From the IMG/VR virus record IMGVR_UViG_2671180890_000003: 20,749 nt of DNA; one strand, written 5' to 3'. Below the pieces are notes generated by a model. It was not told the origin of the DNA. It saw only the letters and a program-made list of their open reading frames with translations, and searched no databases. Of the stretch, positions 1,123-20,749 are shown piece after piece. A program made the position numbers and the translations under genes. Position 1 is the first letter of the stretch, and each line of letters starts with the position of its first letter. Origin of the DNA: a virus (Duplodnaviria > Heunggongvirae > Uroviricota > Caudoviricetes).

Positions 1123-1566
1123 ATGGTCTTTGCAATGAGCAAATCTAATCTGGTCGCGTTCCGCATCCCATCTGAATTGCAGGATGAGTTTAATCGGTCT
1201 GTTCTCGCTTCTGGAGGGGATAAAACCTCCTGGCTTGTTGATGCGATTCGCATGAAGCTGGGACAGCCGGAAAAGTCTATTGATTCACGAATGCTTGGGC
1301 TGGTGGAGCGCATGGAAAAAGCCGCTGCGTCGCTTATTGCCGGAAAGCCGAACATCCCACCAAAGCCATATAACGAAACGGCAGTTATAAAGATCATTGC
1401 CGATACCATCCGACAGGGATTTGATAATGGGCGTGTGATAGCGGAACGGCTCAATGAAGCAGGCTATCAAACAAAAGCTGGTAAAGCATGGGATAAAGAC
1501 ATTTACAGCGCGTGGAAGCGTCAGGGAAGCAATGCTGAAAAGTTATCAGTGGCTCTAAGAATGTAG
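1123..1566 (+). CDS. Putative DNA-binding protein (147 aa) with ribbon-helix-helix-like N-terminus
   Basis: Only credible plus-strand gene. N-terminal LVAFRIPSELQDEF...WLVDAIRMKL fits a strand-helix-helix pattern; C-terminal LNEAGYQTKAGKAWDKDIY resembles a recombinase-type DNA-binding motif (from memory). No clear SD; start may be ATG 1135. An inverted repeat ATACAGT-5-ACTGTAT sits about 25 bp upstream. Confidence 0.5.
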   Translation: MVFAMSKSNLVAFRIPSELQDEFNRSVLASGGDKTSWLVDAIRMKLGQPEKSIDSRMLGLVERMEKAAASLIAGKPNIPPKPYNETAVIKIIADTIRQGFDNGRVIAERLNEAGYQTKAGKAWDKDIYSAWKRQGSNAEKLSVALRM

Positions 1567-1582: not shown

Positions 1583-1960
1583 TTAGACGTGCTTGGAGAA
1601 CAGGTAGCGTGCCATCACTAAAACAATGCCAAAGACTTCAGCGAGGGTTCCCCCCATAAATAGGTTTATAACGAAATCACTAAAATGGAGCAGTTTTGCT
1701 CCAATAAGGACAAAAATCCCATTCATAACTAATAGCTGGCCTATCAGAATGCCGATAAACCACCGAGCAAACATTTTTTTCAGTTTTGTGTCTGTTTTTA
1801 AATCTTTTGTTTTTGCACGCTGATGGGCTTTGGCTGGATCCTCATCATTTAGATGTGTGAGGGTTTTTGCTGATGGTGATGAGCCAGAGGCTGGTTCACC
1901 TCTGGCTTGTCTTGCCGCTTGCTTTAGTTTTTCAGATATAGCGTAAGATCTAGACGTCAT
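1583..1960 (-). CDS. Small membrane protein (125 aa): hydrophilic charged N-terminal ~60 aa then two predicted transmembrane helices
   Basis: Track ORF. Start lies 3 nt after the stop of the upstream peptidase gene (translational coupling). Hydrophobic stretches WFIGILIGQLLVMNGIFVLIGAKLL and FVINLFMGGTLAEVFGIVLVMARYL. Confidence 0.55.
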   Translation of the reverse strand: MTSRSYAISEKLKQAARQARGEPASGSSPSAKTLTHLNDEDPAKAHQRAKTKDLKTDTKLKKMFARWFIGILIGQLLVMNGIFVLIGAKLLHFSDFVINLFMGGTLAEVFGIVLVMARYLFSKHV

Positions 1961-1963: not shown

Positions 1964-2446
1964 TCATCGAAGCCCTAAATTCTTTAGGCGATAACGTATA
2001 GCATCATCGGATACACCAAAATAGGAAGCCATCATTACTGGTGCATATCCTGCATTGTTGAGGCGTCGAACCTCTTTTTCTGGCATGAGAAGACATGCTG
2101 CAAAGTTATTGGCGAATATTTCTTCGCTGTCTACACCTTGGCTTGCCAGTTTTCCGCGGTAATCAACAAACTCATATTCAAGTGGCTGACCGTTCTCAGT
2201 TCGTTTGACGTAATGCCCTAACTCATGCGCACACGTAAATCGTTTGCGCACGTTACTATCATTACGATTGAGTATGATTACTGGATCTTGTTCTGGCTCT
2301 TTCAGCAATGCGCCTGAAACATCATCATCAAGCGTGGTTTCAACAACATCCAACCCTAACTCATTGGCAATCCATACTGGATCAACCGGGAATTTCCTAT
2401 CGCCCCAGATATCTTTCAAGAGGGCATGTGCAGATGTATTCGACAT
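1964..2446 (-). CDS. ImmA/IrrE-family (DUF955-like) Zn-metallopeptidase, no fused HTH domain (160 aa from ATG 2446)
   Basis: HEXXH motif in RKRFTCAHELGHYV. ATG at 2446 is preceded by AAGGAGG at the right spacing; the track ORF begins 2 codons earlier at a GTG (2452). Confidence 0.7.
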   Translation of the reverse strand: MSNTSAHALLKDIWGDRKFPVDPVWIANELGLDVVETTLDDDVSGALLKEPEQDPVIILNRNDSNVRKRFTCAHELGHYVKRTENGQPLEYEFVDYRGKLASQGVDSEEIFANNFAACLLMPEKEVRRLNNAGYAPVMMASYFGVSDDAIRYRLKNLGLR

Positions 2447-2627
2447 GTTCACCTCCTTTGATTATGGTTAAATAGTCGAAATTTTCACCACTTCCCTTGT
2501 GGATATATTTACATATAAAAGGTAACTAGTCACTAACCAACACAAATCTTTTTGAAGACAGATGGGGGGTGTTGAACGGTTTTTAAATGATTTCTTTGAT
2601 TTTTAACAGCAATAAGGAGCATTTTTA

Positions 2628-2681: not shown

Positions 2682-2905
2682 CCTTCTATGCTGTTTTTCC
2701 AACTAAAAGATTGGCACATTTATCCGCTGGTAGTGGCGTTTTTTCGCCGCCAGCGCCTCTCTGGTTCCATTCCTTACATCTGTTCAAATTCAGCAACCCT
2801 TGCCGCGATCTTGCCGTTATCGAGAAGCTCTTTCGCTTTTCGGTTAATACTATCGGTCTTCATATTGCCAGCAGCATACGCCATCCGATAATTTCGATGC
2901 TACGC

Positions 2906-3280
2906 GCGCGTACTTGTCGCAAAATATCAGGCAAAGGCCAGATTCAGAAAGTCGTGATAACCACCAGCACAACATGAGAGGTCATGTAACGCGATTTATC
3001 ACACCAGATACATGTGATTGGTGTACCCGCATAAAACATCGTCATAGCGCGTCCTGTGCGCATATACGCCGATAATCAACACATCACCACCACTCTGTCT
3101 TATGTAGAGAACAGTTTTATGGTGCTCCCCGCCATCGTGTGCGTACTGGTCGGACGCAGTTGCAAAAAATTTTGCAACTGATACCCCTCGCGCGCGTACT
3201 GGTCACGAAATTGGTGTTTTGCTGTGGCAGTGATATCAGAAAAATCTTCCTGTTTCACATAAAGCGGATATGCGCGTACT
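2906..3280. repeat. Dispersed short repeats GCGCGTACT(GGTC) at 2906, 3141, 3192 and 3272 (variant at 3047) plus inverted repeat AGTTGCAAAA-aa-TTTTGCAACT at 3158-3179
   Basis: Read directly from the sequence. Region 2460-3418 has no convincing ORF on either strand. Spacing is irregular and units are short, so this is not CRISPR-like. Confidence 0.5.
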
Positions 3281-3384
3281 GTAACGGCCCCATCAACTGG
3301 GAGCGGATTTGAGCCCCGAATGTGTAGGCAATGTCACTTAACGTTTGTCGCATACCTTCCAGAAAAAGCGATTCATGAATAATA

Positions 3385-3420
3385 GGGGCATGAATGCCCG
3401 GCGTACCGGGCTTATTAGTT
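3385..3420. terminator. Two overlapping GC-rich hairpins (GGGCAT/ATGCCC and GCCCGG/CCGGGC) with T-rich flanks; candidate intrinsic terminator just downstream of the lipoprotein gene
   Basis: Hairpins at 3386-3399 and 3396-3411. T-rich TTATTAGTT follows on the plus strand and CTATTATT on the minus strand; the T-tract is imperfect. Confidence 0.35.
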
Positions 3421-4117
3421 AATTTGGTGCTTTAGGGTCAACATTAAAAGTTATATCACCTTCTGTATTTTTCCCGGCATAGCTAGCGGCTATTCTCGCC
3501 AACCCTTTGTAATCAGCAATTCCATCAGACTGTTGCGAGACGACTGAGCTACCAACTTTCCATAACATATTAATCTGCCGATTATTGAGATAAGCCTTGG
3601 CATCAAACGACTGGAGTATCACCCCTGCGCCGTAGAACGTGTCCGTCACAGTTGTGTTATACGCGCCAGTAATTCCATAAGTAGGCGTATAAACTGTTGT
3701 TGCCGTTCCAGTGGTATTAGCTGTACCGTAGCCACCACCATAACTATTGAACGTGGTGTTCGAGTTTCCGTACGTTGTTGCTGAGCTCACACCAGTTTGC
3801 CCGTATATTGGGATGGTTACATTACGAGTATTTGAAATGGCCCCGCTTCTCAAAAAGTTCAAGAGAATTACCTGGTCAGCCAATTTTTCATCTTTAACTT
3901 GTGTATATCCTTGGCTTGATAAACTGGCGGCTACTACCGTAGCTATTTGAGTGTATTCAATCTGTTTGGTGTTCCAAAGTTCTTGGCTTGCGGGGATGAT
4001 CAAGAACTTCTTACCGACAGATTGCCCGGAAGATAAAGCATTGACCGTTACTAACGGTTTTTGTACGCATCCAGCCAATAATGACAGGGATAATATTAAA
4101 AGAAGATTTTTAATCAT
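3419..4117 (-). CDS. Lipoprotein (232 aa) with Gly/Thr/Tyr/Asn-rich central low-complexity region
   Basis: Signal peptide with lipobox LLAGC (MIKNLLLILSLSLLAGC). AGGTGAG SD upstream of ATG 4117. Possible own sigma70-like promoter (TTACAT...TAATTT) in the 150-bp gap upstream. Lower GC than the upstream module. Confidence 0.7.
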   Translation of the reverse strand: MIKNLLLILSLSLLAGCVQKPLVTVNALSSGQSVGKKFLIIPASQELWNTKQIEYTQIATVVAASLSSQGYTQVKDEKLADQVILLNFLRSGAISNTRNVTIPIYGQTGVSSATTYGNSNTTFNSYGGGYGTANTTGTATTVYTPTYGITGAYNTTVTDTFYGAGVILQSFDAKAYLNNRQINMLWKVGSSVVSQQSDGIADYKGLARIAASYAGKNTEGDITFNVDPKAPN

Positions 4118-4267
4118 GATAATCTCACCTAAGAATTGCGTGGTTATAAATTATCATCACTGTAAGCGAATGTAAGCCACAGGCTCGTAATGTGATATGG
4201 AATTTTGATAGTTGGCTCAATATCAGTATGCCGTCCTTGGCTATTATGGTTTTGTTAGTTAGAGCGT

Positions 4268-6988
4268 CTATTCCCATTCGCTAACATCTTTCATGCCACT
4301 GAGGGTAGCTACAATCCCGGCCCTTGTCAGTTTCACGAATTCTTCAGCCCCAACGGCATCACGAATTGCTTTCATGGCAATTTTATTGGCCGAAAATCGT
4401 TTCTCTGCTGCGGCGATCGCTGCTGGTGATGCCCCTGCGCGCACTGCTTTTGTAGCTTCCTGAACGGCTTTCTCTATCGCATATCGACCACTTCTTGTCG
4501 CCCCAATCTTAGCCACAGCATTTCTTAGCGCGCCACCAGCAACCAAACCACTAATCGAACCAATTACACCACCGCCAAAGCCTCCAGCGATCGCACCTGA
4601 CTGTTGAACACCGTTCATAATCACGCCGACGATCTTTGGAAGGCCTGAATCGAGCGTTTTGAGAGCCTCAGTTGTTCTTCCCGTGCGCTCTACGTATCGC
4701 TGCGGTCTGGTACTGGCTTTAGCGAGTACACCGAACTCTTTCATCATTCTACCGAGATCTGGCGCATGACGACTGATGGCGTTTACATTCTGCTGGGTCA
4801 TGAGCTTGGCAAAATACTGGATACCTGACTCTTCACCGATTCCTCCCTTCTCTCCCTGCGCCACAGCATGCTGAAGAATAGATGCTATTGCAGGTTGGCG
4901 TTCTGCTTCCGGCAGCGCGGAGATAAGACGGTGAAAAGCTCCCGTTCCAGTGTTTGCGGATGCCTTAAGCGTATCGGCACCTTTTCTTACCATAGCGTCT
5001 GATGCGAGATCTCGACCAAAAACAGATTCGGCATTTTGTTTGGCGATAATGTAACTTTTAGAGAGATCGTTAGCTTTCTGCCATTCTGTGAGGAAGTTTC
5101 CTTTTTCAGCCATGATGCGCATGTCATCAGTGATAGCTCTGCGCATTTCTCCGGCAATCCGGGCGGCATTGGCCTTACCTGCCCGGGTGTTTGCTTGTTC
5201 AGCATCAGCAAACTTAGCACGCCATGCCTTCATCCCGTCGAAGGTTATGCCGCCACCTTGGTTGTTGGCAGCCTGAAACTGTTTCATCTCCGGGCTGAGT
5301 GGAACATTGGCTGCTTTTTCTGCTTGGACGACAGCCATTCCATTACTCATTTTCATCCTTTCGCGTGGCATCGTGCTTCGCAGTTCTGCCCATGCCATAT
5401 TCTCTGCTGTTTTCATATCACTGAGGCTCGCGATGATGCGCTCTTTAATTGCTGCGCTTTTTTCTGATGCGCTTCCAGACTCAGCACCGAAATCAGACAA
5501 CTGCTTATTCAACTTTGAGGATATTTCATTGAAGGCCGTAAGGTGAGCATCCTGAACATTCCCAGGAGTTGATGCCAGAACACCTTCTGCTTGGGCAATT
5601 CCACGACTACCTGAGCGCATTCCAGGCGTCAGGGTGTTGATATTAATACCAGTGATTTTCGCCGCCTTAGCGACATCATCTCTGACGTTTGATGCCTGCG
5701 ATGCGATATGCTCTCGGCCTACGGCAGAACGCGCTGCTTTCGATACATCATTGGCGGTTTCCAGAGTATTTGCTGCCCCTAACACATGGCCTGATTGATT
5801 TGTATTACTCCGCAATACATCTCGCATTACGTCACTGGCTGTCTGTCCGCTCTTTATTAAAGCGCGTGCTCCTAGCGATCCTGCTAGGCCAATACCTGTC
5901 TCTTTTGCTAGGTCTTCTGGGCTGATCTGCCCGTTCTTTTGGGCGTTCACCAATGTACCTGGCAGGTTTTCTGCCAACATACTAGCCACCTTTGTGGCCG
6001 CACGTTCAGCACGTGGAGCGTTGGCAACTGAAGAAGCTGCGGTAGCTGCCTTTCCTGCACCTAATCCTGTAATAAGGTAAGGTGCTAGCTGCTCACCAGC
6101 CTGCGCGTATGGATCTGTAGGTTGGTCTACTGGGCGAAAGACTGGTGATATGGGCGTGTATGTGCCATCACCCACACCAAGCTTCTGAGCTGCCCATGCT
6201 CCGGCTGATTGCGCCGCATTGACTACCCCCACGCCTGCGTCCATTACATCAAACGGTATATTAGCAATCCCTCTGGCCATCTGCTCTGGCGCAGCTTTCA
6301 GTCCTGGCGAAAGATATTCCATCTCAGGATTAAGGTTAGACTTGGCTACTTGCTGCTGCGGTTCCCCGGCATTTTCATCGGCGAGAAACTGAGCTCTTTT
6401 CTGCTCCCATGAACTGGCTGTTGGTAGTCCTGCTTCTATGTTCTTAAATTGCTGACGTTTTGCTTCCCATGCAGAAATATCTCCCACCTGAGAGATTTCT
6501 TTATCAAGCTCTGAGTAGTCAGGCTGCTGAAGATTGCGATGTTGACTGGTTTGTGCAAACTGCAAGATTTCACTGTCATCAGGGATTATTCCGGCATCTG
6601 CAAATTTACTTACGTAATTAGCCGTTTCATCTGGCAGTGTAGATTTACCGTTTCTGACGGCATTAATACGAGCATAGCCAGAATTATACCCAGCCAATGC
6701 CATACCTATATCACCAAATCGCTTCATTCCTTTATTGAGATGGTTTGCTGCGATATCCATTTGCTTTTCAAATGGCAGTGAGCGCGGATCTGTTCCACGA
6801 TAACCAGCATCACTCATTACTGAGGGCATCAGTTGAGCAAATCCTCTAGCTCCTTTCGGTGACTCGGCACTTCCGTTACCACTAGATTCATTGCCAACTA
6901 ATGTTTCCATCGTCCCTGATGGGAAACCATATTTTTCATCGAGATGACGGGAATAGGCTTTCTGTTTTTCTGTCAGTTGTGCCATCAT
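4268..6988 (-). CDS. Large virion-type protein with N-terminal SLT lytic transglycosylase domain (about 906 aa); internal-virion/ejection protein-like (T7 gp16-type architecture) or tape-measure-like
   Basis: SLT signature ES...GARGFAQLMP...AGYNSGYARI in the first ~150 aa. The remainder is Ala/Gln/Ser-rich and helical, with a Gly-rich hydrophobic C-terminus. ATG 6988 forms an ATGA overlap with the upstream stop; the track start is 6994. Confidence 0.8.
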   Translation of the reverse strand: MMAQLTEKQKAYSRHLDEKYGFPSGTMETLVGNESSGNGSAESPKGARGFAQLMPSVMSDAGYRGTDPRSLPFEKQMDIAANHLNKGMKRFGDIGMALAGYNSGYARINAVRNGKSTLPDETANYVSKFADAGIIPDDSEILQFAQTSQHRNLQQPDYSELDKEISQVGDISAWEAKRQQFKNIEAGLPTASSWEQKRAQFLADENAGEPQQQVAKSNLNPEMEYLSPGLKAAPEQMARGIANIPFDVMDAGVGVVNAAQSAGAWAAQKLGVGDGTYTPISPVFRPVDQPTDPYAQAGEQLAPYLITGLGAGKAATAASSVANAPRAERAATKVASMLAENLPGTLVNAQKNGQISPEDLAKETGIGLAGSLGARALIKSGQTASDVMRDVLRSNTNQSGHVLGAANTLETANDVSKAARSAVGREHIASQASNVRDDVAKAAKITGININTLTPGMRSGSRGIAQAEGVLASTPGNVQDAHLTAFNEISSKLNKQLSDFGAESGSASEKSAAIKERIIASLSDMKTAENMAWAELRSTMPRERMKMSNGMAVVQAEKAANVPLSPEMKQFQAANNQGGGITFDGMKAWRAKFADAEQANTRAGKANAARIAGEMRRAITDDMRIMAEKGNFLTEWQKANDLSKSYIIAKQNAESVFGRDLASDAMVRKGADTLKASANTGTGAFHRLISALPEAERQPAIASILQHAVAQGEKGGIGEESGIQYFAKLMTQQNVNAISRHAPDLGRMMKEFGVLAKASTRPQRYVERTGRTTEALKTLDSGLPKIVGVIMNGVQQSGAIAGGFGGGVIGSISGLVAGGALRNAVAKIGATRSGRYAIEKAVQEATKAVRAGASPAAIAAAEKRFSANKIAMKAIRDAVGAEEFVKLTRAGIVATLSGMKDVSEWE

Positions 6989-8304
6989 TGCCATCCCTTA
7001 AGTTTTGCCTGATAGTAACTTTCCGGCAGATAGCCATGTGCGGTCACATAATCCTTAACCAGTGAAGGATCCTGCAACAGCATTTTGGTATCAGTTTCTT
7101 CGTCCTTAGATTTGGTTACAGGAATACCGAGCCCGGCAATCTGTCGTTTCTGCATTCGAATAATTACGTCCTGCGCTTTATTCAACTCTCGCAAAAATGC
7201 CTCATTGCTGGTTGCTGACTTAATGCCATTTTGAGATTGCATAAGGGCAGCCCTTTCCCCTTCGGTTGGGTTAGAGCCAAAAGTCCCTTTGAGGCTAGGC
7301 AGAATAACCTTTAGGTTGTATTCATCAGCTTTGGCGCGTAGGCTTCGTGTGTCTTCTGCTACATCAGGAAGGAATCCAAACCCCAGCGTCAGGGGGTTAT
7401 AGTTCTGCGAGCGGGTAACGGCCGAAGGATGTTTCCCTACAATTCCCGCCAGTTCATGACCCACTTCAAGCGCAGAGTTCAAGGAGTCGATGTTACCTGC
7501 AACAGTATTAATTTTATCGTTCATCTTCTCCACTTTCGCCTGCTGTATCTTGCTCAGTTCAGCATTGAGCTTGTCTCTCTCGATGTCATTTTGAGCACGT
7601 CCAAGTCGTGCTTTCAGAACCATTTCTCTCGTGCGTAGTTGGTTATCGGATAGGACTTTGAACTGCTCCATATCGAGACGTCGATTACCCTGTTCCGCAT
7701 TAACCTGAGCATTATATGCGGATGTATCTGCGTTCTGCTGTGCAATGCTCTGCCCTTGCTGCTTCTCTTGAACACTAAAGTAACTATTTGGATCAGCATG
7801 GAGGTGGATGAGGTCAGTGATTCTGTTGAATTCCTGTGGGTCATTCTGCCAAGACTGATAAACCTCTTCAGCAGGAAGACCAAATCGCTGTAATACTGGA
7901 TTTGCCTGCTGAATGGCCTTCTGCATGGTCAGTGGATCTCCAGTTTGTGACGCAAGACGCAGATTCATGGCAGCGTCAGCGGTCTGTCGATTTTGCTCAG
8001 CATCAATGAATCCCATCTGTTTTTGAGAATCAGCCATAAACTGGGGATACTGGGCCATTAACTTCTGCACGCCAACACGATCATTATTAGCTACCGCACT
8101 ACCCAACCGTGCCTGATATTCTTTTAACTGCTGGGAAATTTGCGCCTGCTGATTAATCTCAGCAACGCCTCTTAGCCCCTGTAGCGCCATTAAACCTACG
8201 TTTGGCTGCTGCTGATACTGCACAGGCTGAGGAACGGAAGAACGAGGAGCATTATCATTTTGCGGTGCCATGCTAGGCAGCCCGCCAAGTTGCCATGTCG
8301 CCAT
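6985..8304 (-). CDS. Gln-rich coiled-coil protein (439 aa); putative virion internal protein (gp15-like position)
   Basis: Track ORF. Start overlaps the upstream stop by 1 nt (TAATG) and the stop overlaps the downstream start: a translationally coupled block. Confidence 0.7.
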   Translation of the reverse strand: MATWQLGGLPSMAPQNDNAPRSSVPQPVQYQQQPNVGLMALQGLRGVAEINQQAQISQQLKEYQARLGSAVANNDRVGVQKLMAQYPQFMADSQKQMGFIDAEQNRQTADAAMNLRLASQTGDPLTMQKAIQQANPVLQRFGLPAEEVYQSWQNDPQEFNRITDLIHLHADPNSYFSVQEKQQGQSIAQQNADTSAYNAQVNAEQGNRRLDMEQFKVLSDNQLRTREMVLKARLGRAQNDIERDKLNAELSKIQQAKVEKMNDKINTVAGNIDSLNSALEVGHELAGIVGKHPSAVTRSQNYNPLTLGFGFLPDVAEDTRSLRAKADEYNLKVILPSLKGTFGSNPTEGERAALMQSQNGIKSATSNEAFLRELNKAQDVIIRMQKRQIAGLGIPVTKSKDEETDTKMLLQDPSLVKDYVTAHGYLPESYYQAKLKGWQ

Positions 8305-8981
8305 TAGAATCCAAGCCCCCCAACAAGACCAATAAGCCCACCACCAATAGCCCCGGCGACATTACCTATACCCGGAACAACGGAACCAAGTTGCGCACCC
8401 GCTAAAGCGCCTGATGCCGCCCCACCAATACCACGCGCAAGACTGGATGGCTGCTGCGCCTGACCTGCACGAATAGCGCCAAGCCCCTGCAAGAGTTGCC
8501 CGGTATTATTGGCGTAGTTTTGCCCTGCTGTTGCCTGCCCTGATGCCGCATTCATCCCGACATTTAGCAGGTTTCCATAATTTTGCATTTGCCCACTGAG
8601 CCAATTGTTATAAAGCATGGGCGCAATGGAAGATAACTGGTTACTGGTAGCTGTTGAGCCAAGCCCCCCGGTAGCTTCTGCTGAGACAAGGTTCTGATAA
8701 CGGGCCTGATCTGCCTGTGTTTTATATAAACCAGAACCAAAGAAATCATTCGCGGCTTTATTCTGCCCTTCCAGAGTCATCAGCCCTTGCAGTTGTTGTA
8801 AAGCAGGCAATCCGACTTCTGCATACGGCTTGAGATTATTCATCACCGTATTCCACTGCTCGCGCTGCAAATCAATTGCCTGCTGCTGGGCCTTCGCCTG
8901 AGCTTTAGAGGCACCACCATCACCGCCTTTTTCGTATACGGCACGATTGAGATGTTTATGAGCTATATGGGTAATTAACAT
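8304..8981 (-). CDS. Gly/Gln-rich protein (225 aa) with hydrophobic Gly-rich C-terminus GGLIGLVGGLGF; putative membrane-inserting virion protein (gp14-like position)
   Basis: Track ORF, coupled to its neighbours; composition suggests membrane association. Confidence 0.65.
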   Translation of the reverse strand: MLITHIAHKHLNRAVYEKGGDGGASKAQAKAQQQAIDLQREQWNTVMNNLKPYAEVGLPALQQLQGLMTLEGQNKAANDFFGSGLYKTQADQARYQNLVSAEATGGLGSTATSNQLSSIAPMLYNNWLSGQMQNYGNLLNVGMNAASGQATAGQNYANNTGQLLQGLGAIRAGQAQQPSSLARGIGGAASGALAGAQLGSVVPGIGNVAGAIGGGLIGLVGGLGF

Positions 8982-9436
8982 TCGCTGAATTCCTTATATT
9001 GTTGCCGAGTTAACTGATAAAGCGTTACGCCGACGGGTTTACCACATCTGATATAAGCATCATCAAGGTGACCAACACGGGTAGCGCCAAGCAAACGGAT
9101 AATTGCCCGTCCGTATTTCGTGGTGTCAGGAACCATAGTGATGCTATTAAGGAATGGTGAGTTTTCGAGAAGCCATTTGCAGAATAATCGATGCCCTTGC
9201 AGTGCATATTCGCCACGGAATCCGGGGTCGTACACCGCATGGCATTCAACAACGCTATGCCAGAAGTTACGCACTTCATGAACGCCAGCCAGCACCAATC
9301 CTTCGTAGATGCCGAGATATACCGCATCAGGCTTGATGTAGTACGTGTGCCCCGGCTCAACAATATTTTCGGTATTGGCAGGCTCGTTAAGAAAGGCCTG
9401 TAATCGCACCGGGTTATCAATAAATTTTAGTTCCAT
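8975..9436 (-). CDS. Hypothetical protein (153 aa), first gene of the ejection-like block (gp13-like position)
   Basis: Track ORF with ATG start; overlaps the downstream gene by 7 nt. No family recognised. Confidence 0.6.
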   Translation of the reverse strand: MELKFIDNPVRLQAFLNEPANTENIVEPGHTYYIKPDAVYLGIYEGLVLAGVHEVRNFWHSVVECHAVYDPGFRGEYALQGHRLFCKWLLENSPFLNSITMVPDTTKYGRAIIRLLGATRVGHLDDAYIRCGKPVGVTLYQLTRQQYKEFSEC

Positions 9437-9452
9437 GCGGTGCCATCCATTT

Positions 9453-9614
9453 TCACATACAGCCTGCCAGCGCCTTATCTATTAACCCTCGTGCAATTTC
9501 ATGCAGAGTTGGCGCTACTCCAATTCCTGATTTTTTACGCTGCTCTTCCTGAATTTTCTTTATCGCTTCCATTTGCTTCTCACTTATCAATACCGGCTTT
9601 ACTGAAATAGCCAT
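9453..9614 (-). CDS. Small putative ribbon-helix-helix regulator (53 aa, MAISVKPVLISEKQMEAIKK...)
   Basis: Below the track length cutoff. ATG 9614 is preceded by AAGGGGG SD; the stop is 16 nt upstream of the 153-aa gene. The strand-helix-helix pattern is my inference. Confidence 0.4.
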   Translation of the reverse strand: MAISVKPVLISEKQMEAIKKIQEEQRKKSGIGVAPTLHEIARGLIDKALAGCM

Positions 9615-9709
9615 AACGCCCCCTTAGAACTGTATAAAACAACAGTTATTATAGTTTCACAAATCGCAATATTCATCATCGTAATTGCAAAATATGAAAC
9701 AAATAGCAC

Positions 9710-9741
9710 AAAAAAATGCCACCGCTCAGTAGCTGGTGGCA
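9710..9741 (-). terminator. Intrinsic terminator for minus-strand transcripts: stem TGCCACC(GCT)/(AGC)GGTGGCA followed by T7 on the minus strand
   Basis: Plus strand shows A7 (9710-9716) then the hairpin 9717-9741. Ends the primase-side transcription unit before the ejection-like block. Confidence 0.6.
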
Positions 9742-9751
9742 TCGTTCTGTG

Positions 9752-9781
9752 TGTCAGGTTTTGACAGGTTTTTTATGGACT
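9752..9781. repeat. Copy A of hairpin + T6 + ATGGACT element (TGTCA-ggttt-TGACA, T-run 9769-9774, ATGGACT 9775-9781)
   Basis: TTTTTTATGGACTCYRAAAACT matches copy B at 20 of 22 positions. Contains a perfect TTGACA hexamer at 9761-9766. Confidence 0.5.
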
Positions 9782-10108
9782 CTAAAAACTATATTTATGG
9801 TATCGCATTACTCTTCACGGCAGGCGCTTTTCAGTTCTGCCCTTGCTTCTGGCTCCATTGGTAATTTGATTCGCGATCAGCTATGCGGATGGTTTGCTGA
9901 ACAGGCATAACAACATCTCAGAGGCTATTTTTTGAACTACGAAAATTTCGTAGGTCTCTCCTTCAAAAACGTCACGCCCTTGTACACTGGATTTTACAAA
10001 AGTCTCGTAAAACTCTTTCCTGTTCTGGGCTATGTGCCAAACCGCAGCGAATACCTCCGTCTGCCAGATGAGCAAAACATACCTTATAAAGAAAATCGCT
10101 GTTTTTGC

Positions 10109-10210
10109 TGTACCACCTGTACCACCATGTCACAAACCCTTGTGTGGCGCGGCCTGTAGGTGGTACAGGTGGGTAAAAATGACCTCTCCCCACCTGTACA
10201 GACCTGTACC
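10109..10210. repeat. Iteron cluster built on CCTGTAC/GTACAGG (TGTACCACC x2 tandem at 10109-10126; GGTGGTACAGGT at 10159-10170; CCTGTACAGACCTGTACC at 10193-10210)
   Basis: Read directly from the sequence; the same 12-mer family occurs in the 11230-11335 cluster. Candidate ori/crr-type binding sites for the adjacent primase. Confidence 0.75.
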
Positions 10211-10216
10211 ATTTAT

Positions 10217-10954
10217 TTAATTTTTACCCATAGCAGCACATAATCCCTTTTTTGAAATATTGAAAAATGCGTTCATTCTTCCCGCTGGCTTAACCTTGTA
10301 GCCGCTTGCCACCATCGCCGCAATAAATGCTCCGTTGGGGATATAGTGCGGGTGATCACTGTGCTGGTGGTTTATCTGGTTATATCGCTCCACTTCATGC
10401 TTCAACGTGTCAGATGTGGGGTTATCCTGCGGGAAGCTCTCAATCTGGGCATTACTCATCCCGTTGTCTCTGATCCATCTCAGGCAGCTTTTCGCCGATA
10501 CGATAAATGACGGGTTATCAAGCGGGTTTTCCCAGTCCGCATTCCGGTTGTGGAGCGCCAGTCCGTCAAGGTTAAATTGTGGGTATTCAGCGGTAATTAC
10601 TGTCACTGCGTGGCGGATTTCAGTCTCGTCACAACATGGCTCATCTCCCACACCAGCAGGGTAATAATCTGAACCACCGGGACTGATACAGCGTTTACCA
10701 CTGAAAGGCCATTGCTTCGCCATTTCGGGTGTTGAGTGATTACCGTCGCTCCGTTCGCGCTGTGCCTCTGTCCACTGGCTGGCATATTCAGTAAATGAAA
10801 CCCTTTGCCCCTGGCGCATCCAGTGCGCAATCATAATTAAAGTGCGTTCCAGACTTTGGATGTCGCCAGCATTCCCGCACTGTGTAGCGAAACTTTTTAA
10901 TTCTTCGCGCTCCGTTCTGGTCATTCCCTGCGGTATGCAATAGTTATTGTTCAT
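10217..10954 (-). CDS. Hypothetical Cys/His-rich protein (245 aa)
   Basis: Track ORF. ATG 10954 forms an ATGA overlap with the upstream gene; GAGAGG SD. No family recognised. Confidence 0.6.
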   Translation of the reverse strand: MNNNYCIPQGMTRTEREELKSFATQCGNAGDIQSLERTLIMIAHWMRQGQRVSFTEYASQWTEAQRERSDGNHSTPEMAKQWPFSGKRCISPGGSDYYPAGVGDEPCCDETEIRHAVTVITAEYPQFNLDGLALHNRNADWENPLDNPSFIVSAKSCLRWIRDNGMSNAQIESFPQDNPTSDTLKHEVERYNQINHQHSDHPHYIPNGAFIAAMVASGYKVKPAGRMNAFFNISKKGLCAAMGKN

Positions 10955-11187
10955 GTTTTACCTCTCTGTTTTACCTCTCTGATTTCTGCTGCCATATCTG
11001 TTGGCTCTATACAGCCGTCCCGACTTGCCACGCAGGGAATAATGATTTCAACGGTATCGCCGTCAATACACATTTCAACATTCGCCCATGCCGCAATGGG
11101 TAGCCAGTCTGAACGCCCCTCAAACCGTAGCTGCCAGCCAGAGGAAGAAGCTAACTGGCGCACTTTGTAAAATGGTGTGCTCATCAT
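10951..11187 (-). CDS. Hypothetical small protein (78 aa)
   Basis: ATG 11187 preceded by GAGAGGGAA SD. The 3' end contains a 13-bp tandem duplication (10955-10980) that also duplicates the SD of the next gene. Confidence 0.5.
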   Translation of the reverse strand: MMSTPFYKVRQLASSSGWQLRFEGRSDWLPIAAWANVEMCIDGDTVEIIIPCVASRDGCIEPTDMAAEIREVKQRGKT

Positions 11188-11229
11188 TGGTTGTTCCCTC
11201 TCAGCCAGCCAGAAGAAATGCGTTTGTTA

Positions 11230-11335
11230 ATGGTATAGGTGGTACAGGTCTGGTATAGGTAAGATATTGACCTGTACCACTATAACGCACTGTTTTTAAT
11301 ACTGAATTAGCAAAATGGTATAGGTGGTACAGGTA
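11230..11335. repeat. Iteron cluster: 19-mer TGGTATAGGTGGTACAGGT x2 (11231-11249, 11316-11334), half-copy TGGTATAGGT (11251-11260) and inverted CCTGTACCAC (11271-11280)
   Basis: Read directly from the sequence; sits in the 177-bp gap immediately downstream of the primase-helicase stop. Candidate replication origin. Confidence 0.8.
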
Positions 11336-11363
11336 AAAACGTTCTTCTTGTAAAAAGACTATA

Positions 11364-13718
11364 TTAAAAAACATCATAACCCCCCATACCGATCAGACGT
11401 GCAAACGCAGCCTGTAGAACTCCGACCTCTGGTAGTTCGTAGAACACGCCATTCCCACGGTCTGGTCTTCCATGCTTCACCAGTCCCATTTGTGCAAGTG
11501 ATTTACCCAGTAGTGATCTGGCTGCTGGTTCTTTAAGCTTTTCCCCACGCTCAAGCGACCACGCTACAAATCGACTAACCATATCCTTTGCAAACAAACG
11601 GACTTCGCCATTAAACGGAGGTTCATTGATTAGCTCGCCATAAAGAAACAATTCAACGCCAGACAGCCCCAGCAAGATTTCTTCACGTAAGGCATCGGTC
11701 TGTGGCGCTCGTTGAGGGTCAAAACCTGAGAGATCCACCCCTTTAAGATGCCAAAGCAACTTTGCGGCACCGCCATCATTAAGCCAACTGTACAGCCGAT
11801 CAAAATACTCCCGGCTCTGTGCTTTTTCAGGAGATGGCTCAAGCACGAGATAGCGGCGCTCTCTTATCCCTGCCTGTAATACCTGTGTGCTGTTACTGGC
11901 AAATATCAACCGGGCAAAATTCGGCATTGGTTCAGCATCAATTCCCTTGCGCTCAAGGTTAAACGTCGGTTCGCTAATAATCGCTTTAAGTCTGTCAGCT
12001 TCAGACGGCTTGTGGATCGTCACTTCGTCAGCAAATACCAGTAGCTTGTTAGCAAGTATTGAATTGAAGCGCCCTGAAATATGTCCCGCCCCGTTAATGT
12101 GGGCGGCGTACTGCCCCAGTATTTGCAGCAGCGGTTTAACCGTTGTGCCTTTCCCTGTGCCCGGGACAGATTTCATCACGATTGCCACGGACGGTTTTTC
12201 ATCAGGCTTTTGGATAATGTGCGCCATCCACTGGATAAGATATTGGTATGCCTCTTCATTACCGGCACAGACAACCTGCAACAGGTGATTAAGGTATACC
12301 GTGCAATCTCCTTCAATTGGTTCCAGTGCCAGCCCCTCATACAGATTAAAAACATCGTCAGGGCATTTGTCTGGTACTGGATAAAATCCTACGCCTCCTG
12401 GCTTGTAGTTCTTCCCACTCCATGACAGCCACGCCGATCCCGCCAGCTTTCTGGCGACTCTCGGTTTATGATGAAAATAATGCTGAAATTGTGATAAATC
12501 CTCGAAAACGTGCGATACACCGCCGGTTTGAGAAGGCTTTAGCGACACCACCTTGTGTTTCCCGCCGATGGTGACATGCGTAAACGTCCGGTTGATTTCT
12601 TTGAGGACAGCAATTTCATCATCGCTTAACACCTCGCCAGAACTGATCTCATTCAGCGCCCCGACTGACTGTTTGTGATTTTTCACCTGCGCCCCTTTCC
12701 CCCGTGGCTGGTACATCGAATCTTTAAATGCTGCTGTGGCTGCCGCCAGCCCGTGTTGTTGGTGATAGTCGTTCCAGTCGGCTTTATAGTCAGTCGGTGG
12801 CAGAGACACCCAGCCAGCTACGGAAATAGCGGCCCTCTCTGCGGCATCTTTCCCCGTGTTGATCCCTCCACTTTCGGAGTTTCCTTGCTGGTGATCGTTA
12901 TCTGCGGCAATGATGATTTGTGCCTGTGGATATGTTCTGCGCATGACTTCCGCTACTGGCAACAGGTTGCCAGCGTCGATTGCTGCCACTGTCATTGCGT
13001 CAGGGCGAATTAAATGGCACGACAGGGCGGTAGCCACCCCCTCAGCAATTATGATGCTGTGAGGTCGTTTCTGTGCGTTTATGGCGTGATATGCCCCCCG
13101 CTTTGCTGAACCTGTCAGGAGTCTTTTTTCACCATGTGAGGTAATTGTCTGTGCTGCTGTGACTGCGCCGGATTTATCCACCAGCGCCAGCAACAGAGAT
13201 CCATCGGGCAACACGGGGAATGTAAAATCACCTACCCCTTTCGCAACCAGATAATCAGATTTGCCGTTTACAGCCTTTCTGCGCATGTCATCAAACTGAC
13301 GGGAAAACGTATCCCGTCTTTGTTGTTCGTCCTTCTCTGCCCTTTTCAGGCGCTCCTGTTCGCGTCGCTGGCGCTCGGTTTCCAGTTGTTCCCGTTTCTG
13401 GCTGGTGGCTTCTGGTGTTTCCGTTGTCCGGTAATCAATACCCAGAACATCAGCGGCAAGCAGCGCCGCCTCTGTTGTGTCGCAGTTATTTACGCGTTTA
13501 ATTAAATCCAGCCCATCACCAGCGCCGCACTGATTACAGATGAAGCTACCGCGCCCGTTGTCATCGAACCGGAATCGATCTTTGCCCCCACATGCAGGGC
13601 AGGGAGCATGACGGCGCGGAGAGTCAGGGACATTTATGTTCAGGCAGCCCAGCACATGAGGCCAGTTGTTTTCAGACGCACTGATAACCTGACGGATAAG
13701 ATCAATGTTTCGCATCAC
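11364..13718 (-). CDS. P4 alpha-type primase-helicase (784 aa): Zn-ribbon, TOPRIM primase, SF3-like helicase
   Basis: CPACGG...CNQCG zinc ribbon; TOPRIM-like IIIAEGVATA and IIIAADNDHQQ; Walker A VPGTGKGTT and Walker B LLVFADEV. Confidence 0.85.
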   Translation of the reverse strand: MMRNIDLIRQVISASENNWPHVLGCLNINVPDSPRRHAPCPACGGKDRFRFDDNGRGSFICNQCGAGDGLDLIKRVNNCDTTEAALLAADVLGIDYRTTETPEATSQKREQLETERQRREQERLKRAEKDEQQRRDTFSRQFDDMRRKAVNGKSDYLVAKGVGDFTFPVLPDGSLLLALVDKSGAVTAAQTITSHGEKRLLTGSAKRGAYHAINAQKRPHSIIIAEGVATALSCHLIRPDAMTVAAIDAGNLLPVAEVMRRTYPQAQIIIAADNDHQQGNSESGGINTGKDAAERAAISVAGWVSLPPTDYKADWNDYHQQHGLAAATAAFKDSMYQPRGKGAQVKNHKQSVGALNEISSGEVLSDDEIAVLKEINRTFTHVTIGGKHKVVSLKPSQTGGVSHVFEDLSQFQHYFHHKPRVARKLAGSAWLSWSGKNYKPGGVGFYPVPDKCPDDVFNLYEGLALEPIEGDCTVYLNHLLQVVCAGNEEAYQYLIQWMAHIIQKPDEKPSVAIVMKSVPGTGKGTTVKPLLQILGQYAAHINGAGHISGRFNSILANKLLVFADEVTIHKPSEADRLKAIISEPTFNLERKGIDAEPMPNFARLIFASNSTQVLQAGIRERRYLVLEPSPEKAQSREYFDRLYSWLNDGGAAKLLWHLKGVDLSGFDPQRAPQTDALREEILLGLSGVELFLYGELINEPPFNGEVRLFAKDMVSRFVAWSLERGEKLKEPAARSLLGKSLAQMGLVKHGRPDRGNGVFYELPEVGVLQAAFARLIGMGGYDVF

Positions 13719-14407: not shown

Positions 14408-14417
14408 GGCTCCATCC

Positions 14418-15020: not shown

Positions 15021-15234
15021 GTTTCGCCTCGCCTGAATGATTCTGTAACTCATATTTGCCCAACAATTCGTCTGCTTCCTGAATAGCTTCTGGTACGCCA
15101 TTGAGCAGTGACATAACCGCGCCAATCATTAACTTGTCTCTGTTGCTGGGGCTGGCCCCTTCAAGCCAGAACCCTAAAACAGTCTGAACCTGTTCGATGC
15201 GACATTGCGCTTCAATGAGCTGGATGTTGGTCAT
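15013..15234 (-). CDS. Hypothetical small protein (73 aa)
   Basis: Track ORF; ATGA overlap with the upstream gene. Confidence 0.45.
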   Translation of the reverse strand: MTNIQLIEAQCRIEQVQTVLGFWLEGASPSNRDKLMIGAVMSLLNGVPEAIQEADELLGKYELQNHSGEAKHE

Positions 15235-16270: not shown

Positions 16271-16285
16271 TCTGGCTAACGGCAC

Positions 16286-16307: not shown

Positions 16308-16310
16308 ATG

Positions 16311-16745
16311 TGTCGCCTCGTACATTTCCGGGCTGCGAAACCCGGCACCCGTTTTATGAGGTGCCTTATAACCATAAACCGTGTTGCCGCATAACGGCAA
16401 GCTCTTTTTTATGGACTCCGAAAACTCACTATTGGAAGAACCAGAAGCACAGTACATCGCGCTCATTTCGTTAACGTCACGCGCGTGGACGAATGTTTTT
16501 GTGGAGTCACTACACGAGCGGAAGACATCATCTACGACCAGAAATTTTCTGGCGCAGCCGCTGACCTTCTCAATGCTAATATCATCGCCCGAGATTTCTG
16601 GTATGGTTAAGGCATCCGTTCCGACCACCAGCAAATGATAAACTTTGCTTGTATCTGCTGTATTAATGCCTGACTTTGCCGTCATATTTCTGGATTTTGG
16701 CGACATGCCAGCCAGTGAAAATGTCTTCTTCTGGACGGGTATCAT
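16311..16745 (-). CDS. ORF of unknown function with a strong start but unresolved 3' end (possible frameshifted or fused gene)
   Basis: ATG 16745 has a GGAGG SD and an ATGA overlap with the upstream gene. The frame has no stop until 15678 and runs through a terminator hairpin and a promoter-like region; the end coordinate is nominal. Confidence 0.3.
16384..16417. repeat. Copy B of hairpin + T6 + ATGGACT element (TTGCCG-cataa-CGGCAA, T-run 16405-16410, ATGGACT 16411-16417)
   Basis: Shares the 14-mer TTTTTTATGGACTC with copy A. On the plus strand it resembles an intrinsic terminator; it lies inside the minus-strand ORF that starts at 16745. Confidence 0.5.
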
Positions 16746-17759: not shown

Positions 17760-18191
17760 TTAAGCGGCGTTAAACGCGTCCGGGTAGAGTTTCAGAATGT
17801 CGGCAATTTCCTGCTGAGAAAGTCCGTTGTGATCATTTATGTTCGCAAGATGGTTAATATGAGTGATCACTTTCAGAACATCACCACGGCAGGAGAAACG
17901 GTAGCGAAGGTGTGTTCCGATACCATCAGGATTCTTTTCGTCGATACGCTCCAGAGTGATTCCAAGCTGGCGTTCTAACTCTGTTGCATAGTTACGACCA
18001 GAAGACAGACGGCAGTAGCGAAGAATGTCGTTTTCTGTCCATCCCTCTATACCAGTACGCAGCATATAGACTCGGGCACGATGCTTTTTCGGTGTGCGCT
18101 TTGGTGCTTGAAGGGATTTTGTAAGGGGCGTAATATCAGATACGCGAATATCTGAATTAGCCGCCTGTAATGGGCGGTTTTTCTTTTCCAT
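17760..18191 (-). CDS. Hypothetical basic protein (143 aa)
   Basis: Track ORF; start overlaps the AlpA-like stop by 1 nt. No family recognised. Confidence 0.55.
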   Translation of the reverse strand: MEKKNRPLQAANSDIRVSDITPLTKSLQAPKRTPKKHRARVYMLRTGIEGWTENDILRYCRLSSGRNYATELERQLGITLERIDEKNPDGIGTHLRYRFSCRGDVLKVITHINHLANINDHNGLSQQEIADILKLYPDAFNAA

Positions 18192-18409
18192 CAGGCCACC
18201 TTCCCGCGGCGTTCTGCCAGCCAGTTATTAATTTCCACCGCATCAAACGCAGTCACGTTATCTGTTAGCTTCACTGGGCGTGGAAGAGTGCCATTTTTAA
18301 CCCATCTATCAATAGTAGGCAGTGAAACACCTAGCAATTCCGGCATGCGAAAGCGACGGATGTATCCAGTTGTTGGGATAGCTGATGATGCTGGCTTGTG
18401 TGCTGTCAT
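18191..18409 (-). CDS. alpA: AlpA-family prophage transcriptional regulator / excisionase-like HTH protein
   Basis: RFRMPELLGVSLPTIDRWVKNGTLPRPVKL...WLAERR matches the AlpA pattern. ATG 18409 chosen for a plausible SD; the track ORF extends to 18478. Confidence 0.7.
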   Translation of the reverse strand: MTAHKPASSAIPTTGYIRRFRMPELLGVSLPTIDRWVKNGTLPRPVKLTDNVTAFDAVEINNWLAERRGKVA

Positions 18410-18514
18410 ATGTCCTGTAACTCCTGTGATAGCTGTTGAAGTTACGGTAATCATGTGAGCAGGGGGATTAGATGTCATCGCAACGAAAAATGGATTTTCG
18501 TTGCGAAATTATCT

Positions 18515-19489: not shown

Positions 19490-20749
19490 TTACTTTGCCT
19501 TTCTGATAGGCGTCACGTTGTAATCTTCGCCCTTCTCCAGAGCCACCAGCAAGCCCGCCCACTGTGTTAACGCAGCCCGGCGCTCGTCAAAGTATTGGTG
19601 ACGGTTATAGATACCCTCAACGCCTTTTATGCGGTGATTGAGGCATCTTTCAGCCACTACCGGATCAACGCCCAGCGCTGCTAAATGAGTACGTGCGGTG
19701 CGTCGGAAGTCGTGAATCGTGAAATTAGGCACATCCGGCATTTCGGCGCGAACCTTAGCCAGTGCTACGGGTAAAGTGCTTTCCTGAATATGTGGGATCA
19801 TTCTGTTTTGCATTTTCCTGGCTGGAAGCACCCATGCGCTATTACATGAAAAGGCGTGAAGCTCTCTCAACCATTCAACGGCTGGGGAAGGTAGAGGTAT
19901 ATCAATAGGGTCTCCGTTTTTGCTGCGTTCTTCCGGCAAATGCCATACCGCACCATCTAAATCAAACTCTTCCCATCGTGCGGCGCATAACTCCATCTTA
20001 CGAACGCATAGTGCCAGCAATAGCTTAAATGTCAGTTCGTTCTGGCGGCTGAATCCTTTTGCGGTGCGCATAGCCTCGAATAGCCTGATAAGCTCATCGC
20101 GAGTTAGCCAACGGTCGCGGGAAACCTCTTTACCACCAGCATCAGATACTTCAAACGCTGAACAAGGGTTTATCTCCAGAGCGTGGCGTTTTATTCCATA
20201 GTCAAAGATACGGCGTGTCCAGCGTAATACATCTGTTGCTATCGTTGGTGCTCCTCGGTCAACGATACCTTTCAACATGTCGTCAATGTGGCGTGGCTTA
20301 ACGTCCTCTACCTTCATATGCCCAATGCAGGGGTTAATATCCTTATCAATTCTCCGGCGAAGGATATCGGGATGTTTCCATCTCGGAAGTATCTGGCGCT
20401 CGAAGTATTCGGAGGCCAGATCTGAAACACGCATGGCGTTTTTCTCAGTCTCCATTTTTGCCAGTGCTTCAGCTTTTCGTTCCTGTTTCTCTGCTGCTAC
20501 GTCATAGCCAAGAGCAACTCTGGCTGACAGCTCTTTTGCTGTTTCTCTGGCTTTTGATAGTGACAGTTCGGAGTAAGAGCCTATAACCATAGCCCGCTGC
20601 TTTCCTGCGAGCTTATAGCGGAATCGCCAGAACGGGACTGTGTAGTTTTTGGGGTAGCAAATATAAAGGCCGTTGCCGTCTGCCTTGCCATCAAATCTGT
20701 CTCCCGCCTTTATCCATGCGCGGATCTGCATATCTGTGAGTTTTGGCAT
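19490..20749 (-). CDS. int: P4/CP4-57-family tyrosine integrase (419 aa)
   Basis: C-terminal catalytic motifs HDFRRTARTH (HxxR) and a conserved Tyr in GIYNRHQY; N-terminal region typical of P4-type integrases. The start codon is at the last base of the window. Confidence 0.9.
   Translation of the reverse strand: MPKLTDMQIRAWIKAGDRFDGKADGNGLYICYPKNYTVPFWRFRYKLAGKQRAMVIGSYSELSLSKARETAKELSARVALGYDVAAEKQERKAEALAKMETEKNAMRVSDLASEYFERQILPRWKHPDILRRRIDKDINPCIGHMKVEDVKPRHIDDMLKGIVDRGAPTIATDVLRWTRRIFDYGIKRHALEINPCSAFEVSDAGGKEVSRDRWLTRDELIRLFEAMRTAKGFSRQNELTFKLLLALCVRKMELCAARWEEFDLDGAVWHLPEERSKNGDPIDIPLPSPAVEWLRELHAFSCNSAWVLPARKMQNRMIPHIQESTLPVALAKVRAEMPDVPNFTIHDFRRTARTHLAALGVDPVVAERCLNHRIKGVEGIYNRHQYFDERRAALTQWAGLLVALEKGEDYNVTPIRKAK

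Follow-up and report, generated by a model that had tools for sequence, protein, structure and literature searches.

A P22-type ejection gene cluster in an EcCIMP1-like phage satellite and its possible role in satellite DNA delivery

We analysed a 20,749-nt stretch of DNA (the window, below) from the IMG/VR virus record IMGVR_UViG_2671180890_000003, with attention to a block of minus-strand genes at positions 4268-9614. The block was found to be a relative of the 14-7-20-16 ejection cluster of phage P22, and the island carrying it was recognised from its sequence as another member of the EcCIMP1 family, a kind of element published in 2025. We consider it fairly probable, though well short of certain, that the block serves an EcCIMP1-like phage satellite (a phage-inducible chromosomal island, PICI), itself a parasite of P22-like podoviruses, as its module for DNA delivery; in the most likely course, helper capsids receive ejection proteins that the satellite encodes.

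The larger open reading frames (ORFs) of the window were scanned with Pfam and PHROG profiles, several small ORFs being outside the scan, and each of the four larger proteins of the block fell into a P22 family. The 153-aa protein matched DUF2824 (E 4.2e-62, 209 bits against a cutoff of 25) and phrog_651 (E 2.6e-67), which makes it the gp14 homologue; it shared 84% amino acid identity with Kapi1_055, and its gene together with the start of gp7 was 81.7% identical to phage Kapi1 at the nucleotide level. The 225-aa protein covered positions 19-229 of the 230 in the P22_gp7 profile (E 1.9e-72, 244.3 bits, cutoff 28), matched phrog_598 (E 1.2e-69) and was about 58-60% identical to gp7 of Kapi1, P22 and Dewey. 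For the 439-aa protein, matches to Inj_translocase (E 3.7e-22, 79.5 bits, cutoff 29.7), phrog_917 (E 4e-44) and phrog_2534 (E 2e-42) were obtained. Residues 189-864 of the last protein, which is 908 aa long when counted from the first ATG and 906 aa in the RefSeq call, matched phrog_770, a 'DNA transfer protein' family (E 5.3e-121), and the protein showed 47-52% identity to gp16 of Dewey, CUS-3 and epsilon34; a PDB sequence search with it gave no match. The gene order was also that of P22 and Dewey. Successive genes overlapped by 7, 1 and 10 nt, which makes translational coupling of the four plausible, as the first-pass annotation of the window had proposed for genes of 153, 225, 439 and about 906 aa without stating their strand, which is minus. 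That annotation had left room for a tape-measure or secretion-system identity; no operon protein matched such a family in Pfam or PHROG, all matches being to P22 ejection families or to the lytic transglycosylase domain SLT, and this identity was rejected.

The N-terminal lytic transglycosylase expected on the largest protein was indeed found by Pfam (SLT, residues 17-119, E 1.1e-12). Its catalytic motifs E36-S37, G48-A-x-G-x-x-Q54-x-M-P57 and Y103-x-x-G106 were invariant in seven homologues including both satellite and phage versions, and close relatives of the fusion (SLT-gp16) bore PF01464 together with PF26808 (Phage_P22_gp16). A 2022 review had stated that the transglycosylase is absent from P22-like phages. 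Phages Dewey and Huey nevertheless carry the fusion at full length, with residues 21-903 aligning at 47% identity, and the sequences thus contradict the review: an N-terminal-SLT gp16 does occur in the P22 family. Among our comparison loci (numbered L), it was located at 12330-14957 of the Dewey locus (L007) and at 11335-13926 of a complete Serratia P22-like prophage (L016).

The block had initially been likened to the gp13-gp16 internal-virion cassette of T7. The functional analogy and the N-terminal SLT domain held up well: in T7, too, a small, a medium and a large protein (gp14, gp15 and gp16, with gp13) build an envelope-spanning conduit and the largest carries an N-terminal lytic transglycosylase, and the 2022 review assigned T7 gp14/15/16 and P22 gp7/20/16, pair by pair, to the outer membrane, the tunnel and the inner membrane. 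Homology of the cassette, on the other hand, did not hold. No T7-family match was obtained in Pfam or PHROG for the 225-aa and 439-aa proteins, and phrog_342 (T7-type gp16) matched the 908-aa protein over residues 9-217 only, that is, at the SLT domain. Since no sequence or profile similarity extended beyond SLT and the island proteins are much smaller, the relation to T7 is one of analogy or very distant homology, and membership of the T7 cassette was rejected. From the sequence comparisons, the cassette is homologous to the P22 14-7-20-16 cluster and not to T7 13-16.

Apart from the ejection proteins, which count as virion components in their own right, no capsid, terminase, portal, tail or lysis gene was detected in the window by the profile scans, in agreement with the first reading. 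In complete E. coli genomes the island was bounded directly by yicG (or dinD) on one side and yicC on the other, all of them core host genes, so that the sequence immediately beyond the window holds no gene for capsid, terminase or tail, and an ordinary prophage whose structural genes continue beyond the window was rejected. Some carriers lacked dinD beside the left end. An imperfect repeat, ATTATGTACACCYYTATGTACACG, was present at both island ends in three genomes (for example at 12127 and 32021 of L001) and delimits an element of about 20-20.7 kb. The usual PICI traits were also present, namely an integrase at one end, an adjoining AlpA-type regulator and a primase with iteron-like repeats. 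The suggestion of a satellite or integrative element was thus borne out, both by the bounded island and by a verified relative, EcCIMP1. With the cluster of P22, Sf6 and HK620 (Lederbergvirus-like), the island shares the four protein families, their order, their close coupling and the variable, mosaic nature of gp20 and gp16; it differs in having no tailspike, capsid or terminase gene and in adding a conserved 53-aa gene and the SLT domain on gp16. The surroundings differ as well. In P22-like phages the cluster follows tail genes 4-10-26 and precedes the tailspike, whereas in the island it is preceded by the primase operon, the candidate replication origin (ori) and a terminator, and is followed by a lipoprotein gene, accessory genes and host DNA.

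Two stretches of the window, together about 12.7 kb, could be aligned closely with EcCIMP1 of E. coli MP1, one at 98.8% identity (2810-10019) and the other at 96% (12694-18201). The first of these stretches holds the ejection operon, the lipoprotein gene and a pac-like unit (pacB, below), and the second runs from the N-terminal part of the primase past Ash and AntA as far as AlpA, with the same gene order in both elements. The integrases, however, were 29% identical; EcCIMP1 is inserted at tRNA-Thr near proA in MP1, whereas our island lies at yicG/dinD-yicC; the C-terminal domain of the primase is DUF5906 in the island and DUF927 in EcCIMP1; and the ori segment and the accessory genes at the PerC end also differ. 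Since the differing segment, 10019-12694, covers both the ori candidate and the C-terminal part of the primase, its divergence is as expected for a swapped replicon specificity module.

EcCIMP1 is a phage-inducible chromosomal island that excises only upon induction of the P22-like prophage Kapi1 (Pick, Stadel & Raivio, ISME J 2025, PMC11773190), its alpA being the helper-responsive master activator (PMC11773190). The 'DNA transfer'/DUF2824-like genes downstream of its primase were named as packaging candidates and left uncharacterised in that paper, which mentions neither ejection nor transglycosylase nor pac sites (PMC11773190). The idea that a satellite with its own ejection genes would be unusual needs to be divided: the element type was already published in 2025, and the ejection reading is proposed here. 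Apart from EcCIMP1, our literature search brought up no satellite with ejection proteins, and the meaning of the cassette as well as the pac mimicry described below were absent from the literature searched. To our knowledge, no other satellite family carries helper-type ejection proteins or pac-site arrays.

A podophage remnant fused to a P4-like backbone had been offered as one explanation of the block, and a functionless P22-like prophage remnant hitch-hiking in a P4/PICI-type island would agree with the 84% identity of gp14 to the Kapi1 protein, which indicates exchange with phages, and with the decay of some copies by insertion sequence (IS) elements. The substitution pattern contradicted it. 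When the operon was compared with that of a Leclercia adecarboxylata island, the ratio of nonsynonymous to synonymous substitution rates (dN/dS) was 0.03 for the 53-aa gene, 0.07 for gp14, 0.08 for gp7, 0.065 for gp20 and 0.083 for gp16; the five proteins were 82-88% identical, and the frames had remained intact, with no internal stops, at dS of at least 1. The same architecture occurred in several genera. Of 5,426 complete E. coli genomes, at least 252 had the operon head (53-aa gene, gp14 and gp7) intact at >=80% coverage, and 71 of the 5,426 had the entire block, with an identity of about 99%. No further P22 structural gene fragment lay alongside, save the precisely delimited pac fragment described below.

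The gp20 lineage gave a further argument against a remnant, as no sequenced phage was seen to carry it. The island gp20 reached at most 28% identity in a set of 50,697 phage records, while a protein database of 5.8 billion yielded full-length relatives at 62-89% identity in Citrobacter, Kluyvera, Klebsiella, Salmonella, Pluralibacter, Pectobacterium and Serratia. All contexts examined for relatives at 72-89% (E. coli, Leclercia, Pectobacterium and metagenomes) had the satellite layout of int, AlpA, primase, small ORF, (DUF2824), gp7, gp20 and SLT-gp16 followed by host genes, and the IMG/VR loci that could be classified were satellite-type in nine cases out of nine. More distant relatives, at 45% in Serratia and 38% in Providencia, were located in complete P22-like prophages. 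A scan of species-representative genomes gave one close relative only, in Leclercia, so the wider spread comes from the protein database. On this sequence evidence the gp20 lineage is satellite-specific across Enterobacterales. Because the operon is under purifying selection and its gp20 is satellite-specific, we regard the cassette as an old, selected part of the satellite lineage and not as a recent capture or remnant; the decaying remnant was rejected as largely refuted, and we give it hardly any probability.

At one site in E. coli, and on one backbone, at least three gp20/gp16 allele pairs were found: 439 and 908 aa with SLT (the window), 473 and 701 aa with a gp16 67% identical to that of phages N7 and HZ41, and 432 and 705 aa. 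Such swapping resembles the allele exchange of P22-like phages, whose most variable virion genes are gp20 and gp16 (PMC10883804). One variant (L011) was without gp14, and another (L019) was without gp14 and gp7 and consisted of the small ORF, gp20 and gp16 only, these three being the constant core. The small ORF, which encodes the 53-aa protein, led the module in every island variant examined, including those without gp14 and/or gp7; EcCIMP1 and L008 encode exactly the same protein (100% identity), and the version in the Leclercia island is 85% identical to it. It had been labelled RHH-like, a label that stays unproven: no match was obtained in Pfam (even at E<=5), PHROG or PADLOC, and its AlphaFold model, an extended N-terminus followed by two helices, had no significant PDB fold match in Foldseek. 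A decayed copy of the island was noted at the same site in E. coli TW10690 (L009, NZ_CP127034 410089-435462), where IS5 and IS66 insertions have cut short gp16, Ash and AntA; the island can thus be lost by erosion too. Many E. coli O157:H7 genomes contained a fragment of about 290 bp, annotated DUF2824 and 97.6% identical to the island gp14 gene (for example NZ_CP015832 1558207-1558493).

The island was also found to carry sequences resembling the P22 packaging site. The first, pacA, is a fragment of a P22-type small terminase gene (gene 3) with 91.6% identity to that of Dewey and CurroJimenez, 90.7% to that of IME10 and 86% to P22 (P22 positions 9-110). In P22, the annotated pac site occupies genome positions 4-25, equivalent to gene-3 nt 268-289; the captured fragment opens at the first base of this 22-mer, homology ends on both sides of it, and partial gene-3 matches in E. 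coli genomes always comprised exactly nt 268-374. The second, pacB, was identical in EcCIMP1, L008 and L018 despite their differing gp16 alleles. A pac weight matrix was trained solely on units from outside E. coli and controlled with 40 shuffles; pacA (16491, plus) scored 33.1 and pacB (3249, minus) 23.7 against a shuffle maximum of 15.9, and a third pac-like site at window position 291, which scored within the shuffle range, was dropped. No stretch of the window matched the P22 pac 22-mer when up to 3 mismatches were allowed; homology and the weight matrix alone revealed the site.

Distant islands were without the long gene-3 fragment and had arrays of pac units directly downstream of the ejection module on the same strand, the position that pacB holds in the window. 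Such arrays lay at 13548-14086 in L010, 14989-15200 in L011, 16530-16823 in L014, 9465-9835 in L020 and 15041-15167 in L022, with 8 units in Leclercia, 5 in L011, 4 in L014, 5 in L020 and 3 in L022. One L011 unit was an exact 22/22 copy of P22 pac, and the arrays of other genera gave 0 hits in shuffles. From these sequences we conclude that the family carries P22 pac-site mimics. The arrangement recalls the Staphylococcus aureus pathogenicity islands (SaPIs) and pac-carrying plasmids, which gain high-frequency headful packaging by presenting the helper's pac sequence; many SaPIs encode their own small terminase, whereas the island has no terminase gene and instead holds copies of the pac of P22 gene 3.

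The authors of the EcCIMP1 study suggested from its position downstream of the primase that the cassette takes part in packaging satellite DNA. It does occupy the usual place of a PICI packaging module, pac-like units follow directly downstream, and the 53-aa leader protein could bind DNA or terminase. The four larger proteins, however, belong to families whose P22 members act in ejection, and P22 mutants in genes 7, 16 and 20 still package DNA. The Pfam and PHROG scans revealed no terminase and no Rpp-like or capsid-size protein, and the pac mimic alone would suffice for recognition by the helper's gp3. A packaging role of the cassette itself consequently appears quite improbable to us.

Two further observations were made on the pac-like sites. 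The Ash-family ORF that contains pacA (355 aa, 15678-16745, minus strand) starts at 16745 with a strong GGAGG ribosome-binding site, and since its residues of about 50-85 are encoded antisense to the captured terminase fragment, the mimic is embedded in coding sequence; RefSeq annotation of this region was inconsistent, with an ash pseudogene plus an Icd-like gene in MP1. The two units point outward, pacB (minus) to the yicG side and pacA (plus) to the yicC side, so that lateral transduction of the flanking chromosome might follow if they were used before excision.

How the ejection proteins could serve a satellite is suggested by work on P22-like phages. There, the DNA conduit is formed by gp7, gp20 and gp16, which exit the virion before the DNA enters the cell, and whole foreign P22-family ejection sets were incorporated into P22 virions and were functional (Leavitt et al., mBio 2024, PMC10883804). 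P22 gp7 and gp20 combined with Sf6 gp16 were non-viable, gp20 and gp16 having to match, and SieA exclusion was escaped through changes in gp16 and gp20 (PMC10883804). In the delivery model that we favour, helper induction would lead the satellite to replicate and to express its ejection operon; with the help of gp14, the island gp7, gp20 and SLT-gp16 would be loaded into procapsids built by the helper. The helper's P22-type small terminase would then recognise pacA and pacB and package island concatemers. A P22-size headful is roughly 43 kb and would be filled with about two (about 2.1) island copies. In the next cell, the satellite's own proteins would build the trans-envelope conduit and the SLT domain would cut peptidoglycan. 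The likely benefit would be independence from the ejection alleles of the helper, including escape from SieA-type exclusion acting on gp20 and gp16, and such escape would let the satellite enter cells that already hold the helper.

Several points weigh against satellite-encoded delivery. EcCIMP1 was transduced by Kapi1 at a very low frequency, about 4.8e3 particles/ml (PMC11773190), and Kapi1 titres from induced lysogens were unchanged by EcCIMP1 (PMC11773190). The published P22 pseudo-pac pattern had no exact match in the window, the pacA 22-mer deviating from it at two positions, and the E. coli islands have two pac units only, as against arrays of 4-8 elsewhere. Identity of the island gp20 to phage gp20 proteins does not exceed about 25-28%, which bears on how compatible the protein may be with helper tails. 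Because L011 lacks gp14 and L019 lacks both gp14 and gp7, the four-gene set is not obligatory. Evasion of SieA is a plausible but purely conjectural benefit, and both the entry of the island gp7, gp20 and gp16 into virions and a need for them in transfer are inferred from sequence and by analogy. The low transfer may have another explanation, since the terminase of Kapi1 may be non-cognate: its small terminase belongs to the Sf6 family (PF20901) and not to P22 gp3 (PF16677). No such pac unit was found in Kapi1, and no DNA similarity of the island to the Kapi1 terminase region was detected.

Directly downstream of the operon, a lipoprotein gene was found that raises a different possibility. The protein was 100% identical in EcCIMP1, an 88% identical homologue lay downstream of SLT-gp16 in the satellite locus L022, and a gene of 232 aa held the same position in L014; going by these sequences, the lipoprotein appears to travel with the SLT-gp16 allele in EcCIMP1 and L022, and probably in L014. 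Homologues were present in Kluyvera, Pluralibacter, Serratia and other Enterobacteriaceae, while no phage homologue and no PADLOC defence family match was found. AlphaFold predicted (pLDDT 83.5) an alpha/beta domain with a beta-hairpin of about 40 residues, which Foldseek related to DUF4136 (4f54) and to TraT decamers with a probability of 0.84-0.92 and a low TM-score. EcCIMP1 adds to superinfection immunity against Kapi1 in lysogens, with no gene assigned (PMC11773190). The modelled fold makes the lipoprotein a candidate DUF4136/TraT-like exclusion protein and a candidate source of this immunity.

The immunity could alternatively come from the cassette itself. As an anti-phage or interference device, gp20 and gp16, possibly with the lipoprotein, would disturb incoming P22-like conduits or poison helper virions as mismatched subunits, thereby protecting the host population or lowering helper fitness. 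Such a device would fit the unassigned immunity gene of EcCIMP1, the failure of the mixed P22/Sf6 ejection set to give viable phage, the variant that retains gp20 and gp16 alone without gp14 and gp7, and a TraT/DUF4136-like lipoprotein that travels with the module. The unchanged titres of Kapi1, however, argue against poisoning of helper virions; the island proteins have no signal peptides, while the conduit is assembled from outside the cell; and gp14, an assembly factor of the producer cell, is conserved in most variants. Neither the small protein nor the lipoprotein belongs to a PADLOC defence family, and the lipoprotein alone can explain the immunity phenotype. We therefore judge interference to be unlikely, though not negligible, and keep DNA delivery as the preferred role of the block.

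Known targets of satellite piracy are capsids, tails, terminases and packaging signals; a satellite with its own DNA-ejection machinery would, if true, extend the piracy to the entry step. A more far-reaching version of the delivery model can be put forward tentatively, as a possibility that we hold to be distinctly less probable than delivery as such. It would make these islands the first satellite family to pirate the entry step in addition to the capsid, with their own matched gp20-gp16 (plus SLT), a TraT-like exclusion lipoprotein, multiplied pac sites out-competing the helper genome for gp3, and entry into SieA-protected lysogens. The islands are common, as shown by the count of at least 252 E. 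coli genomes given above, and related islands occur in other Enterobacterales. The pac mimics provide a concrete and testable reason for the poor transfer of EcCIMP1 with Kapi1, and they lead to the prediction that efficient helpers are phages with a P22-type gp3 (Dewey-, IME10- and P22-like), which are present as prophages in about 258 of 5,426 genomes, the number of E. coli genomes in which a full P22-type gene 3 was found. New in this work are the purifying selection, the satellite-specific gp20, the gp20/gp16 swapping, the pac mimics and the terminase mismatch of Kapi1. The features of the window are collected in Table 1.

Table 1. Features of the ejection operon and of the surrounding island, in window coordinates.
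Feature	Position	Strand	Basis or remark
53-aa leader gene, operon start	9614..9453	minus	ORF call; function unassigned
P22 gp14 homologue (DUF2824), 153 aa	9436..8975	minus	non-virion head-assembly/virion-stability factor family
P22 gp7 ejection protein homologue, 225 aa	8981..8304	minus	family is the tail-proximal/outer-membrane conduit part
P22 gp20 ejection protein homologue, 439 aa, satellite-specific allele	8304..6985	minus	family is the periplasmic tube
SLT + P22 gp16-type fusion, 908 aa	6994..4268	minus	Pfam SLT and phrog_770
SLT part of the fusion	about 6638-6946	minus	Pfam
gp16-type part of the fusion	about 4403-6430	minus	phrog_770
Lipoprotein gene, 232 aa, lipobox LLAGC17	3419..4117	minus	directly after gp16
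pacB, P22 pac-like unit (GAAGATTTTTCTGATATCACTG...)	3220..3249	minus	just downstream of the ejection module, same strand
pacA, 107-bp P22-type small-terminase gene fragment (gene 3 nt 268-374)	16491..16597	plus	antisense within the Ash-family ORF
Intrinsic-terminator-like stem-loop GCCACC...GGTGGC + run of 7 T	9710..9741	minus	upstream of the ejection operon
Candidate iteron-type replication origin, direct and inverted GGTACAGGTGG-type repeats	10108..10211		downstream of the primase operon
Primase-helicase (zinc ribbon, Toprim, DUF5906) of the satellite replicon	11364..13718	minus	profile scan
AlpA-like helix-turn-helix regulator	18191..18478	minus	Pfam Phage_AlpA, 25.6 bits (cutoff 21)
Tyrosine integrase, yicC-proximal island end	19490..20749	minus	profile scan
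Candidate att core, imperfect 24-nt direct repeat ATTATGTACACCYYTATGTACACG	127-150 and about 58 nt past the window end		

The terminator that had been proposed to isolate the block was located where expected, between the primase operon with the ori region and the ejection genes. In addition to the genes in Table 1, the window encodes AntA, the Ash-family protein, an ImmA/IrrE protease and a PerC-family protein. With classical Gram-negative PICIs (EcCICFT073, EcCIEDL933) and P4-like satellites, the island shares the integrase, the AlpA-type activator and the primase of P4 alpha type, and further an Ash-family protein, a PerC-family gene and, going by EcCIMP1, probably helper dependence. In classical E. 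coli PICIs, however, cos packaging is diverted by Rpp together with capsid-size proteins, and P4 relies on Sid, Psu and Delta. Neither set was detected in the island's scanned ORFs; for sid, psu and delta, this means no match in the Pfam and PHROG scans of the larger ORFs, several small ones being unscanned. Of the P4-like backbone originally described, the P4-type primase, Ash, AlpA and the integrase are thus held in common, and the P4 capsid-size and helper-control genes are not found in the larger ORFs.

The remaining observations concern the variable end of the island. The PerC-family gene lies at 576-863 on the minus strand, and only part of it was about 88% identical to EcCIMP1_025 at the DNA level. 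EcCIMP1_025, the PerC-family gene of EcCIMP1, silenced LEE1 expression when expressed in Citrobacter rodentium, and for this reason the island may affect virulence regulation too. The ImmA/IrrE-type metalloprotease (1964-2452, minus strand) matched the PADLOC capP model (E 5e-25) and also RmrA models, and its neighbours at 1583-1960 (minus) and 1123-1566 (plus) had no family match. These genes may act as a pair of regulators, or they may make up a small locus with a defence or accessory function.

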